From Octopus vulgaris (lineage: Eukaryota): DNA of 64,000 bases. The position numbers and the translations under genes are program-made. The notes below the pieces were generated by a model, which saw nothing but the letters and a program-made list of their open reading frames with translations, did not search any database and had not been told where the DNA came from. Where the stretch lies: positions 27,404,001 through 27,468,000 of the forward strand of contig OX597825.1 of NCBI GenBank assembly GCA_951406725.2. The letters are read 5' to 3'. Below, one piece after another: positions 6,914 through 62,510 of this stretch (the first letter of the stretch is position 1; each line of letters starts with the position of its first letter).

Positions 6914-7076
6914 AGGCGTAGGAGTGGCTATGTGGTAAGTAGCTTGCTTACGGACCACATGGTTCCGGGTTCAGTCCCACTGCGTGGCACCTTGGGCAAG
7001 TGTCTTCTACTATAGCATCGGGCCGACCAAATCCTTGTGAGTGGATTTGGTAGACGGAAACTGAAAGAAGCCCGTC

Positions 7077-7127
<51 letters not shown>

Positions 7128-7437
7128 TAAATTAGAGACAAAACCACTATTAGGCAAATCAAACAAAGAAAAACTTAAGCCAATACATATGATTAATTTA
7201 TATATGTGTGTGTGTGTGCGTCTATGTTTGTGTGTTGTGTTTGTCCCTCCCCCATCATCGCTTGACAACCGATGCTGGTGTGTTTATGTCCCTGTAACTT
7301 AGCGGTTCGGCAAAAGCGACCGACAGAATAAGTACTAGGTTTACAAAGAATAAGTCCTGGGGTCGATTTGCTCGACTAAAGGCGGTGCACCAGCATGGCT
7401 ACAGTCACATGACTGAAACAAGTAAAAGAGTAAAAGA
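6914..7437 (+). mobile_element. tRNA-derived SINE family B (CORE-like), with expanded internal (TA)n and a short insert
   Basis: Near-identical to 49803-50223 and 62090-62510. Contains ACCTTGGGCAAGTG (CORE-like) and ends GACTGAAACAAGTAAAAGAG. Confidence 0.9.
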
Positions 7438-26040: not shown

Positions 26041-26370
26041 GAGGCCTTCTAAGTTGCTTCCAAAACATGGTTCCTAGTGCAGTTCCACTGCGTAGCATCT
26101 TAGGTGAGTGATTTCCACTATAGCCCCGGGTCAACTAAAGACTTATGAGTGGATTTAGTAGAGGGAGATTGAAAGAACTCCTGCCGTACATATGTATATA
26201 TCTATGTATGTCCTTATGCTTGTGCGTGATTTTATTTTTGTGCTTGTCCCCACCATCTTTTGATAAGCCTGTGCGTTTTTCTTTTCGTCCGTGTAACCTA
26301 GAGGTTCAGCAAATAGGAGGTTGTCAGAATAAACAAACAAATTTAGAAAATACGTAAAAGGTTCCATTTT

Positions 26371-49803: not shown

Positions 49804-50223
49804 GGCGCAGGAGTGGCTGTGTGGTAAGTAGCTTGCTTACCAACCACATGGTCATGGGTTCAGTCCCACTGCGTGGCACCTTGGGCAAGTGTCTTCTACT
49901 ATAGCCTCGGGCCGACCAAAGCCTTGTGAGTGGATTTGGTAGACGGAAACTGATAGAAGCCCATCGTATATATGTATGTATATATATATGCGTGTGTGTG
50001 TTTGTGTATCTGTGTTTGTCCCTCTAGCATTGCTTGACAACTGATGCTGGTGTGTTTATGTCCCCGTTACTTAGCGGTTCGGCAAAAAGAGACCGATAGA
50101 ATAAGTACTGGGCTTACAAAAGAATAAGTCCCGGGGTCGAGTTGCTCGATTAAAGGCGGTGCTCCAGCATGGCCGCAGTCAAATGACTGAAACAAATAAA
50201 AGAGTAAAAGAGTAAAAGAGTAA
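49803..50223 (+). mobile_element. SINE family B, full length
   Basis: Near-identical to 62090-62510, with a (GTAAAAGA)n tail. Confidence 0.92.
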
Positions 50224-57815: not shown

Positions 57816-58145
57816 CGAAAGAAGACTCTAATGAGACGCAAAATTAAATATATATATATATATATGTATATATAAATTAATAAATTTAAATTAATAAATA
57901 AACACTTCGATAAACTGAGATGTGTTTTCTCTTCGAACGCATCACCGGCGCAACAACAACAACAACCTCAACAACAACAAACTCAGCGGCAACAACAACA
58001 ACAACAGCTACAGCAACAACAACAACTTCAGCAGCAACAACCTCAGCGGCAACAACAACAACAACCTCAACAACAAACTCAGCGGCAACAACAACAACAG
58101 ATACAGCAACAACAACAGGATGAACCACTCCTCGATTCATCTACA

Positions 58146-58946
58146 ATGGCCGATTTGCTAAACGAAACGATTGACCCCCCAGTCATCAGGGTCACACAGC
58201 AGGAAGCACGACCTCTTCCTTTCACTGCCCCAGCAGCTCAATCATCATCATTGTCAACACCATCTCCTCTGCTTACTACTACTAGTACAACTCCAACTAT
58301 GTATCGACAAACATCTTTGTCTTGGAATCGACCTCCTCAATCATTACCACTGTCAACATCTCTTCTACCTACTACTACTACTACAACTACTACTACTAAT
58401 GCTATCTCAAGGAATTTACCTCCTACAGGTCACAAAGGTCGCCAAAACTTCAACAAACTATCATCTACACCTTTCACAACTCACACACACACACGCACCT
58501 ACACACCCACTCGAAACCCCATCATTTGCCGATATTCTCTTCGCCATAGACTGTGCACTGATAGAGACTGCAAATTCACCCATTTACCTGGAACAAAACG
58601 CTCTATCCCCACAAACTACAACAGCAACCACCATAATACAATACCACCACAACCACCAATATCTCAAACAAGGAATCCCCAAATCTGCCGCTATTCCCAG
58701 CGAGACAGATTGTGTCTGCACAGGGATTGCCCCTTTACCCATCTCCCAGGGACTCGTCGGACATTTAAAGATAACCACTCACATAAAAATAGCCGCAGCC
58801 ACAGTCACCTGCGGTTCCCTATACAGGAAACCACCTCTTCTTCCTCTTTTTTAGCTATGATGAATCTAGCAAAAGAACTGGAAAAAAACATCCGAGCATT
58901 CACCCACCACCATCCACCACAAATACCCCACTGCACATGCCATTAA
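58146..58946 (+). CDS. LINE ORF1 protein with two CCCH zinc fingers (frame open upstream to 57876, including polyQ)
   Basis: CRYSLRHRLCTDRDCKFTH (58527-58583) and CRYSQRDRLCLHRDCPFTH (58686-58742), with Thr/Pro/Ser-rich linkers. Confidence 0.8.
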   Translation: MADLLNETIDPPVIRVTQQEARPLPFTAPAAQSSSLSTPSPLLTTTSTTPTMYRQTSLSWNRPPQSLPLSTSLLPTTTTTTTTTNAISRNLPPTGHKGRQNFNKLSSTPFTTHTHTRTYTPTRNPIICRYSLRHRLCTDRDCKFTHLPGTKRSIPTNYNSNHHNTIPPQPPISQTRNPQICRYSQRDRLCLHRDCPFTHLPGTRRTFKDNHSHKNSRSHSHLRFPIQETTSSSSFLAMMNLAKELEKNIRAFTHHHPPQIPHCTCH

Positions 58947-61900
58947 AAAGCAATCAAATAAACAAATCACCAAAAGAATTAAAACCATCCACTCTCGCCT
59001 CAACATTTCTGCTTAATGCCCAAGGCATCAGCCCTTCCACCAATACACAAAAATGGAAGATAAGATTCCTGGAGGACTGGGTCGAGCCCCATCCAAACCA
59101 CAGCCCTTTCTTCGTCCTCACTGAAACCCATCTTAGTGACCTCCACTTGGAAGCCGAGGTCAAAGTTAAAAATTTCAAAACCATTCGTGCTAATCGTGCT
59201 GGCAGAAGAAAGGGTGGGACTGCCATTTATGTCCATGATTCATTCTCAACAGAAGCCATGAACATATTTTCGAATGGATACTGCGAAGCAGTTGCTGTAT
59301 TCAGTCAAACCAACAACTTAACAGTAGTTGGGCTCTACAGACCACCCCAAACGCCCCTACCATGCTTCAAGGAATGCCTCAACAGCATAAAGTGTTTCAT
59401 TCAGCAGTGTCAACCTGACAACATTTTAATGATGGGAGACTTCAACCTTCCCGGGGTTGACTGGTCTACAAACAGTCTGCCGCCAGGTTCTTCTCTCTCA
59501 ACCCCTGACAGGGAGGCAGTGGAATCGCTTCTTGACTTCATGGATGACTTTTTCTTGTCCCAACTGGTACTCGAACCAACGAGATGTCACAAAAACGTCT
59601 TAGACTTAATTTTTAGCAATCACACTGATACTATCCACAATATTGCAGTGGAGAAAACCCTACTCTCCGACCATGACATGGTTCTCTGTGATCTGAGATT
59701 TCACTGGCCAAAATGCAAAACAAATGTCATCCCTCCTGTTCATCCATTTGACACTATGGATTTCCACAATGCAAACTGGGAAGCGATCAATAATGATCTT
59801 GCACAAGTCGATTGGTCCTTCACGCACACATACACACCCACTAACATTAAAAAGTCCTGGCAGTCACTTGTAGACATCATCACGAACATATGTGCAAGAC
59901 ACACCCCATTAAGATCTGCAAACAAATCTAAGTATCGAATCCCTAGAAATAGAAAATCTCTCATAAGGAAAATTAAAAGAATCAACAAAAAGATCATCAT
60001 GCTGAAATACTGTCAACAGCAACACACCAACCTGACTGCCATCTCGTCGCTAGAGATTAAAAAACATAAACTCCAAAACAACATGATGTCTATCATCAAT
60101 AGTCAGCGAAGAGCTGAAGAGGCCTGGGCCATTGAGAAGATCAAACTCAATCCCAAAGTGTTCTTTTCATTTGCAAAAAAACAGAGAGTCACTGGTTCTA
60201 CTGTTGGCCCTCTGATTGATGAAAATGGTACTCTTCAAGACAATGCCAAAACCATGGGAGAGATATTGCAGAAACAATATTGCTCTGTTTTCAGCAATCC
60301 TGATATGACTGATCTGGGCTGTATCAGTGATGTTACTCCCCAATACACTTTATCGGACATAACATTTGACGCTCCTGATGTCTTAGCAGCAATAAAGGAA
60401 ATGAAGCATAATTCGGCAGTAGGTCCCGATAGGTTCCCTGCTTGTGTCTTGAAGATGTGTCAAAACCAACTTGCACCCCCTCTAGCCAATCTGTGGCGGA
60501 ACTCACTGGATGCTGGATATATACCAGAGGACCTTCTATCCCAGTCTGTTGTCCCAGTTTTCAAAGGAAACAAATCGCTTGCCGTGAATTACCGTCCAAT
60601 CTCACTCACCTCTCATATCATCAAGGTATTTGAGAGGGTGCTGAGATCGCGTATGACTCACTTCCTTGAGAGGCATAATATGCTGAACCCCAACCAGCAT
60701 GGATTCCGTAATGGGAGAGATTGCCTGACGCAGCTACTGCATCATTTTGATGACATTTTGAGAGCCTTGGGAGAAGGTTCCAACACTGATGTCATCTACC
60801 TTGATTTCAGCAAGGCCTTTGACAGGGTTGATCATAAGATCCTTCTGAGAAAGCTGTCCAATATTGGTGTCACTGGAAAGTTGCTGCAGTGGATCAAGTG
60901 CTTCCTGTCTAACAGAACCCAACATGTGGTAGTCGAAGGAGTCAAATCCAGCCCAGCCAAAGTCAGCAGTGGTGTCCCACAAGGCACTGTGTTGGGCCCA
61001 CTTCTCTTCATCATCTACATAAATGATATTACTGATACCATCAAACACAGTAACATCAGAACCTTCGCTGATGACTCCAAGCTCCAGAAGGTCATCAATG
61101 GCGTGGATGACCGAATAAACCTTCAGTCAGACTTACTGGCTGTTGTCCAATGGGCGGAAAAGAATAACATGTTGCTAAATGAAGACAAATTTGAACTGAT
61201 CCACTTTGGAAGGGAGGACGCTCTGAAACGCCCATACTCTCTTCCTTCTGGAGAAATTCTCATGGCATCCAACAACATCAGAGACCTGGGAGTAACAGTG
61301 GACAACAACATATGCTGGGCTACACATATAAGCAGCAAAGTTGACATGGCCCGCAGAATGTGTTCCTGGATTCTCAGAACCTTCCAGTCGAGAGATTCCC
61401 ACGCTATTATCCTTCTCTTCTCCACTTTTGCCCGACCCCACCTTGAATACTGCTGTCCACTGTGGTCTCCCTACACAAAACAAAATATTATGAGAATTGA
61501 AGCTCCCCAAAGGTCAATCACAAAAAAGATAGATGGCATGTCAGACCTTGACTACTGGGGTAGACTAGAGAAGCTGAAATTGTATTCACTCCAACGACGC
61601 CGTGAATGCTACATTATCTGTATGATGTGGAAAATATTCCACCAGCACTGTCCAAATGATGTTGGCATCACCTTCAAAATGCATCCAAGGCTTGTACCAC
61701 GTGCCATCCGTCCACAACAAAAATCTAAATCGCATCACATAACGACAATACGGTACAACTATTTCACCTCAATTGGACCTGCTCTCTTCAACATTACACC
61801 AGGGCACGTCAAAAAAGAAACTGACCACACAAAATTCAAGAAGTCTTTGGACAAATTCCTTCAAACAGTACCGGACAAACCACCCACACCCGGATATGTC

Positions 61901-61951
61901 TCCGCAAACAATAACTCTCTGCTCGAATGGGCCTTGGTGCCCAAATCCTGA
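58937..61951 (+). CDS. LINE ORF2: APE endonuclease + reverse transcriptase (1004 aa)
   Basis: APE motifs LLNAQG, LTETHL, GGTAIYV, YRPP, GDFNLP, LDLIF, SDH. RT motifs GPD, YRPISLTS, QHGFR, DFSKAFD, GVPQGTVLGPLLF, FADD, DLGV. CR1-like C-terminus LEYCCPLWSP, LYSLQRRR, FKKSLDKFL. Confidence 0.97.
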   Translation: MPLKSNQINKSPKELKPSTLASTFLLNAQGISPSTNTQKWKIRFLEDWVEPHPNHSPFFVLTETHLSDLHLEAEVKVKNFKTIRANRAGRRKGGTAIYVHDSFSTEAMNIFSNGYCEAVAVFSQTNNLTVVGLYRPPQTPLPCFKECLNSIKCFIQQCQPDNILMMGDFNLPGVDWSTNSLPPGSSLSTPDREAVESLLDFMDDFFLSQLVLEPTRCHKNVLDLIFSNHTDTIHNIAVEKTLLSDHDMVLCDLRFHWPKCKTNVIPPVHPFDTMDFHNANWEAINNDLAQVDWSFTHTYTPTNIKKSWQSLVDIITNICARHTPLRSANKSKYRIPRNRKSLIRKIKRINKKIIMLKYCQQQHTNLTAISSLEIKKHKLQNNMMSIINSQRRAEEAWAIEKIKLNPKVFFSFAKKQRVTGSTVGPLIDENGTLQDNAKTMGEILQKQYCSVFSNPDMTDLGCISDVTPQYTLSDITFDAPDVLAAIKEMKHNSAVGPDRFPACVLKMCQNQLAPPLANLWRNSLDAGYIPEDLLSQSVVPVFKGNKSLAVNYRPISLTSHIIKVFERVLRSRMTHFLERHNMLNPNQHGFRNGRDCLTQLLHHFDDILRALGEGSNTDVIYLDFSKAFDRVDHKILLRKLSNIGVTGKLLQWIKCFLSNRTQHVVVEGVKSSPAKVSSGVPQGTVLGPLLFIIYINDITDTIKHSNIRTFADDSKLQKVINGVDDRINLQSDLLAVVQWAEKNNMLLNEDKFELIHFGREDALKRPYSLPSGEILMASNNIRDLGVTVDNNICWATHISSKVDMARRMCSWILRTFQSRDSHAIILLFSTFARPHLEYCCPLWSPYTKQNIMRIEAPQRSITKKIDGMSDLDYWGRLEKLKLYSLQRRRECYIICMMWKIFHQHCPNDVGITFKMHPRLVPRAIRPQQKSKSHHITTIRYNYFTSIGPALFNITPGHVKKETDHTKFKKSLDKFLQTVPDKPPTPGYVSANNNSLLEWALVPKS

Positions 61952-62035
61952 ACTGAAAGACTTCACCAGGTGGTGCTATTAAGTTAGACATGGCCTGGGC
62001 CAATACTGGCCAAAACCTTTCTAAGTTATTCTAAG

Positions 62036-62089
<54 letters not shown>

Positions 62090-62092
<3 letters not shown>

Positions 62093-62510
62093 CGCAGGAG
62101 TGGCTGTGTGGTAAGTAGCTTGTCTATCAATCACATGGTTCCGGGTTCAGTCCCACTGCGTGGCACCTTGGACACGTGTCTTCTACTATAGCCTCGGGTC
62201 GACCAAAACCTTGTGAGTGGATTTTGTAGACAGAAACTGAAAGAAGCCTGTCGTATACATGTGTGTATATATATGCGTGTGTGTGTTTGTGTGTCTGTGT
62301 TTGTCCCCCTAGCATTGCTTGACAACTGATGCTGGTGTGTTTATGTCCCCGTTACTTAGCTGTTCGGCAAAAAAGACCGACAGAATAAGTACTGGGCTTA
62401 CAAAAGAATAAGTCCCGGGATCGAGTTGCTCGATTAAAGGCGGTGCTCCAGAATGGCCGCAGTGAAATGACTGAAACAAGTAAAAGAGTAAAGAGAGAGA
62501 GTAAAAGAGT
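62090..62510 (+). mobile_element. SINE family B, full length
   Basis: Same head, CORE and tail as 6914 and 49803. Confidence 0.92.

Follow-up and report, generated by a model that had tools for sequence, protein, structure and literature searches.

The mechanism by which ORF2 is translated from bicistronic LINE RNA is called unclear in two published accounts (PMC3708506, PMC5009743). According to the former, ORF2 of SART1 needs an overlapping UAAUG stop-start. ORF2 of Zorro3 is described as needing its own first ATG (PMC1965478), and for elements of Paramecium a +1 shift or reinitiation has been suggested (PMC5405496). The nearest precedent in print for the arrangement described here is found in TRE5-A and TRE3-A of Dictyostelium, APE-type non-LTR elements in which, according to the legend of a review, a -1 frameshift is required for ORF2 (PMC5911963). 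The shift site of HIV-1 gag-pol is given as U_UUU_UUA, and A_AAA_AAC and U_UUA_AAC are listed among the most shift-prone heptamers (PMC5009743). In the open-access literature searched we found no animal LINE with a described slippery site; older subscription papers on CR1-like elements, the primary papers on TRE5-A and Repbase reports lie outside it and may already suggest one.

We analysed a stretch of 64,000 nt of Octopus vulgaris DNA (the window). It holds one LINE at about 57880-62040 flanked by (TA)n tracts, and no second copy of the element was found in these 64 kb. The features are listed in Table 1. ORF1 is made up of a poly-Q stretch, an S/T-rich tract, two CCCH-like repeats and a C-terminal helix starting with S-F-L. 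Pfam zf-CCCH gave no match in the window; it is on record for the relatives P0130, P0134 and P0137. With an ORF2 of APE followed by RT, no Pfam match to RNase H in ORF2 and a 3' tail of short tandem repeats, the element is an APE-type LINE. On the basis of its motifs we tentatively take it to be a CR1 element. The CR1 lineage within the Jockey superfamily likewise has an APE-RT ORF2, a 3' tail of short repeats and a variable ORF1 (Metcalfe and Casane, PMC4120745). Neither CCCH nor frameshift nor overlap occurs as a word in the main text of that paper. PHD or GDSL-esterase domains are present in ORF1 of relatives, and the PHD-like part seen in many of them is missing from the window ORF1. In the runs X9 and X2, family contigs meet the window sequence at 57889 and continue for 288 letters ahead of it, and the 5' end of the window copy may be cut off by the (TA)n tract.

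Table 1. Features of the LINE copy and of its ORF1-ORF2 junction (positions in the window).
Feature	Position	Strand	Remarks
ORF1	57876..58946	+	stop to stop, 356 codons; first ATG 58146 (candidate start)
CCCH-like repeat 1	58515..58595	+	C-x8-C-x4-C-x3-H, then LPGT
CCCH-like repeat 2	58674..58754	+	second of two repeats
-1 frame open upstream of heptamer 1, window copy	58793..58846	+	family contigs: TAG at 58820-22
Slippery heptamer 1, T TTT TTA, ORF1 phase	58847..58853	+	conserved; predicted -1 shift site
ORF2 as entered at heptamer 1	58847..61951	+	1034 codons, no stop
Weak predicted stem-loop 3' of heptamer 1	58854..58897	+	-8.7 kcal/mol with heptamer included; not above shuffles
4-bp hairpin of the initial annotation	58854-58870	+	inside the predicted stem-loop 58854..58897
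Heptamer 2, A AAA AAC, ORF1 phase	58883..58889	+	not conserved, probably incidental
First in-frame ORF2 ATG overlapping the ORF1 stop (ATGCCATTAA)	58937..58946	+	possible second route to ORF2
APE endonuclease domain	59009..59677	+	Pfam Exo_endo_phos_2; LLNAQG (Asn 59015), LTETHL, LYRPP, GDFNL, LDLIF, SDHD
Reverse transcriptase domain	60581..61297	+	Pfam RVT_1, E 3e-30; FADD motif
3' tail, two TTCTAAGTTA units	62019..62039	+	short tandem repeats; (TA)n microsatellite next

Next to the 3' (TA)n tract of the LINE lies an interspersed repeat of ~410 bp (62091-62500), presumably a SINE by its looks, with copies of 73-93% identity at 49804-50212, 6915-7434 and 26065-26251 of the window. Eight further long open frames lie outside the two LINE ORFs; in the seven that were scanned (150-271 codons, window 12917-48338), Pfam gave no match above a cut-off.

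The initial annotation had proposed that two slippery heptamers could fuse ORF1 to ORF2. Both are found where it placed them and in ORF1 phase, and the -1 relation of ORF2 and the overlap at the ORF1 stop are likewise as it described them. In the window copy the -1 frame is open from 58793 to 61951 with its first ATG 144 nt after 58793. The ORF1 stop follows 100 nt past heptamer 1, and 56 codons of open -1 frame lead from heptamer 1 to the first conserved Asn of the APE domain. Two in-phase heptamers in 51 positions have a P of about 0.012 (element background, 13 in 4064 nt); AAAAAAC occurs three times within the element and TTTTTTA once. Synonymous resampling left the -1 frame open from the heptamer to the ORF1 stop in 48% of draws. 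Taken by itself, the window copy makes a modest and thin case for frameshifting.

Contigs from 4 of the 24 listed runs were compared with the window over 57850-59500. The contig of organism A (X9) spans 58511-59500 with 21 differences and no gaps, that of organism C (X17) 58717-59198 with 15 differences and no gaps, and the frames are kept in both. A DNA contig of organism A is gap-free over 58845-58957, and in the run of organism B (X2) the junction lies outside the contig coverage. Since the contigs of two organisms are gap-free, the -1 relation is a trait of the family and no homopolymer error. None of the 15 differences of X17, all of which are listed, touches the heptamers, the ATG or the stop, although at 97% identity this contig says little about selection. 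The family contigs carry T58822G. As this creates a TAG in the -1 frame at 58820-22, the open frame of the family begins at 58823, which is 8 codons ahead of heptamer 1. Hence the open stretch of 144 nt that had been noted upstream of the ATG exists in the window copy but is peculiar to it. In the junction peptides put forward initially (..SSFLSYDESSK.. or ..SSFFSYDESSK..), family copies have Asn at the first Asp.

Queried with the ORF1 C-terminus, a first protein search had no match and a later one yielded 18 proteins; a profile built from those yielded 109, with named matches from the ctenophore Mnemiopsis leidyi and from Seison nebaliae. Following the last CCCH repeat, F-L or F-F starts a helix-like segment in 94 of 121 ORF1 proteins. 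By the rule applied, the remaining 27 lack this motif: 10 have K-N-D or a similar motif in its place, 4 have no CCCH match and 13 have neither motif (some truncated). The K-N-D-like proteins are P0025, P0031, P0041, P0042, P0050, P0059, P0066, P0068, P0072 and P0103; their K-N could be encoded by A AAA AAC/U, which would represent a turnover of the slippery site. The residues E, Q, K, M and W are rare in front of the F (2/41 clusters, compared to only 10/82 in an ORF2 control), a pattern that a helix cap would equally give.

Nucleotide sequences of relatives were obtained from a metagenome scan by the CCCH motif alone, which matched 49 stretches, 9 of them confirmed as loci. In all nine T TTT TTA stands in ORF1 phase and encodes F-L. 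Eight of these loci extend to the APE domain and represent five families (L001-3, L005, L006, L007 and L008/9), with 56-79 codons from the heptamer to the first conserved APE Asn. An independent set came from an RT-motif scan of prokaryote genome bins (best 80 of 395 loci), in which the junction was not a selection criterion. CCCH ORF1s were found in three of these best 80 loci and have T TTT TTA (L035), T TTT TTG (L031) and A AAA AAC (L018) at the junction. In each of the three the run lies 3-7 codons past the -1 stop and ORF2 is at -1; the site of L018 is weak when taken alone (P 0.13). The 395 animal-type LINE matches in bacterial and archaeal bins, many of them in a few bins, most likely represent contamination with host DNA. 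When 95 sequences were pooled, 59 had an APE match and 13, including the window, a CCCH match.

Altogether an in-phase slippery run is present in 12 of 12 CCCH loci from eight families (10 T TTT TTA, one T TTT TTG, one A AAA AAC), 11 of which are strict X XXY YYZ heptamers while the remaining one has G as Z. ORF2 is at -1 in all 11 loci that reach APE. There the open -1 frame begins 0-21 codons 5' of the run and remains free of stops for 48-79 codons 3' of it up to the Asn. These elements are distant from each other: APE identity is 29-36% to the window where compared and 29-46% among the five families and the window. Given x-F-L and the respective codon use, the heptamer has a P of 0.003-0.05 per family and a joint P of 4e-9 for the five families without the window, and control F-L pairs elsewhere in six of the elements use the heptamer codons in 1 of 26 cases. 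The open -1 overlap has a joint P of 5e-8 over five families in synonymous resampling. Judged from these alignments and codon statistics, heptamer 1 is conserved beyond the needs of the protein. The comparative check proposed at the outset is thus borne out for T TTT TTA, as heptamer and open -1 frame are kept in distant relatives, many without an ATG. Other searches added no relative: an APE-query genome scan confirmed 0 of 16 candidates, and viral contigs held no relative detectable with APE or CCCH queries. An ORF2 query gave five weak RT-like matches in viral contigs, which were not used. From the Atlas search came a single lead, a cluster in which 10% of the members have zf-CCCH.

An in-frame ATG before the APE Asn is absent from L001-3, L005, L008/9, L031 and L035, i.e. 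from five of eight families; in L008/9 the first Met lies 182 codons into the ORF2 frame. It is present in the window, L006, L007 and L018. The conserved terminal Cys of many ORF1s was considered as a hidden ATG and rejected, for in L001-3, L005 and L006 it reflects an overlap with the codons for L-L-N of the APE domain. Many relatives therefore have no usable ORF2 start, so ribosomes likely slip back by one base.

A 3' stimulator of frameshifting usually follows after a spacer of 5-9 nt, and cases without a stimulator exist (PMC5009743). The region 3' of heptamer 1 in the window folds like its shuffles (z -0.24 to +0.35), and its duplex is equalled or bettered at 85% of control positions. Structure is likewise weak in L008/9. 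Stems are predicted in L005 (8 bp at +8), L007 (12 bp at +7) and L011 (strong, at +8, behind a GDSL-esterase ORF1) as well as in L001-3 and L006. The z values mostly lie between -1 and -2, and the sole fold test beyond -2 is that of L005 (-2.6). In the consensus fold of L001-3, built from three near copies, one of 29 pairs is compensatory, which is no evidence for it. Any 3' stimulator in the window family is thus putative, and frameshift efficiency in this family may be low. Three elements that had been put forward as frameshift signals were rejected along the way. The hairpin of GCTA with TAGC is too weak as a stimulator (-2.0 kcal/mol) and too close, starting 0 nt after heptamer 1. The second heptamer, of the type used by MMTV in gag-pro, lacks conservation: P0021, the nearest relative by ORF1, has LAKEIQRS at this place. 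The third is the 144-nt open stretch discussed above.

Based on the invariant codons, the fixed phase, the opening of the frame at the site and the five of eight families lacking an ATG, we consider it likely that ORF2 of this APE-type LINE is reached by a programmed -1 ribosomal frameshift at T TTT TTA giving ORF1-APE-RT. The CCCH-APE-RT fusion suggested by the initial annotation is supported by the comparison in this form. The slip itself, the fusion protein and a ratio resembling that of Gag and Gag-Pol are what we infer. The tRNAs on UUU and UUA would slip back one base at U UUU UUA (58847-53). The majority of ribosomes would continue to the ORF1 stop and produce ORF1p alone, whereas a minority, slipping at Phe-Leu, would read through a low-complexity linker of ~56 codons into the endonuclease. 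The product would be a fusion of ORF1 (CCCH), linker, APE and RT, and the slip would set a ratio like that of Gag to Gag-Pol. ATG 58937 may offer a second route to ORF2 in the window copy.

The likeness to HIV-1 gag-pol extends to the same heptamer in the upstream frame, a polymerase gene at -1, a nucleic-acid-binding protein upstream and, in several LINE relatives, N-F-L-G or D-F-L-E at the site. In contrast, the window element is a non-LTR element without a protease to cut the fusion, its copy has no clear stem-loop at 5-9 nt, and its shift is predicted from sequence. TRE5-A and TRE3-A, as far as the review legend allows a comparison, differ by being amoebozoan and by another ORF1 and a C-terminal zinc finger. 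SART1, Zorro3 and L1 share the bicistronic LINE RNA, and the window copy, too, has an ATG at the ORF1 stop. Unlike for SART1 and Zorro3, five of eight related families here are without a usable ATG, and the overlap reads ATGCCATTAA.

The latter point bears on termination-reinitiation. The lineage could frameshift while the window family itself makes its ORF2 mainly by reinitiation at ATGCCATTAA, the heptamer being a relic or of minor use, which we regard as unlikely. The window copy does have a usable ATG, located 26 codons before the Asn and unchanged in the X17 contig, its 3' structure is weak, and stop-start coupling has been shown for SART1 (PMC3708506). P0021 ends with QCWH and, going by its protein sequence, could hold a -1-frame ATG as well. 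However, with 56 codons to the Asn the heptamer is in its usual family position, and the overlap differs from the UAAUG of SART1. Three of the seven differences to X17 between heptamer and ATG are silent in ORF2 and change ORF1, against one of seven silent in ORF1, numbers too small for a test. Because the five ATG-less families have no in-frame ATG before the Asn, reinitiation is unable to serve them. Coupling at the overlap, offered earlier as an alternative, may give the window family a second or even its main route to ORF2. In mammalian LINEs AUG-independent initiation is thought likely for ORF2, and polymerase slippage and frameshifting can share sites (PMC5009743). Either process as the way to ORF2, be it AUG-independent starting of the kind put forward for mammalian L1 or polymerase slippage at the T run, appears extremely unlikely here, as neither accounts for an X XXY YYZ that is in phase and invariant. 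Moreover, the T run is just 6-7 long, and among the gap rows listed none falls at the run, bearing in mind that contigs drop rare variants.

A pyrimidine run followed by AG might also act as 3' splice site, in cis or for a spliced leader, and give a separate or fused ORF2 mRNA. A long pyrimidine tract indeed precedes the AG in the window; both here and in 9 of the 12 loci AG directly follows the T run (TTTTTTAG), and L007 reads TTTTTTACAG with AG 3 nt after the run. However, in L031 the T run is in phase and the next 23 nt contain no AG, and L018 is without a T tract. Splicing would work in any ORF1 phase, with TTC CTA as well as with TTT TTA and without a -1 relation, and ATG-less families would be unable to use a spliced leader. 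No donor-like site was found in window 57876-58847. Donors are present in 5 of the 7 other loci scanned, all in phase for rejoining ORF1 and not ORF2, so that none of the eight sequences scanned offers an ORF2-phase donor. The contigs of X9 and X17, runs which we guess to be RNA, extend across the junction without splicing, and 0 of 15 among the joints listed lie at 58855. The splice acceptor that had been suggested is therefore very unlikely. This leaves a single-ORF element broken by a one-base homopolymer loss or an assembly error, or an F-L that is kept for the protein with its codons arising by chance. Runs of T6 and A7 are error-prone, and in the gene-called proteins P0013 and P0016 helix and APE share one frame. 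Yet the contigs of two organisms are without gaps, the -1 relation recurs in 11 of 11 distant loci, and ORF1 continues past the site in the conserved helix; the joint P of 4e-9 speaks against chance codons. The reading as a broken single ORF is largely refuted, and we give this whole explanation hardly any credence.

In an RT tree of unnamed loci the window falls inside an eight-row CCCH clade (SH-aLRT 100). FastTree places L031 and L035 apart from this clade. Because an AU test does not reject a single CCCH clade (p 0.157; no outgroup, 30 of 87 RT sequences, only labelled ones), we claim no swap of ORF1 for these two loci. LINEs with a GDSL-esterase ORF1 (L011, L014, L015) also have a slippery heptamer at the ORF1 end and ORF2 at -1: T TTT TTA at L011:480-486, and T TTA AAC plus a stop at L014:4872-4878 and L015:3635-3641. 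A different type of junction with ORF2 at -1 is seen at L039:1518-1611, L045:258-366, L051:332-428 and L084:136-244. In these loci an ATG, mostly in GGGGGAATGG context, follows 5-6 codons after the frame opens, with ~80-90 nt left to the ORF1 stop. ORF2 is at +1 in L017, L025, L044, L056 and L082, and a PHD-like domain is fused to ORF2 in eight loci.

A wider reading would be that -1 frameshifting is old and widespread in animal CR1-group LINEs, under CCCH as well as GDSL-esterase ORF1s, with U UUU UUA, U UUA AAC and A AAA AAC replacing one another as the site, and that the active enzyme is an uncleaved ORF1-APE-RT fusion joining the ORF1 particle via its own ORF1 part. To this we give slightly better than even chances. 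The seven-base site is conserved across families of 29-46% endonuclease identity, many of them without a start codon. If the proposal holds, a wide group of animal non-LTR elements would use programmed -1 frameshifting, and ORF2p of those LINEs would be a fusion with ORF1. Seemingly frameshifted copies of those families should then not be annotated as broken.
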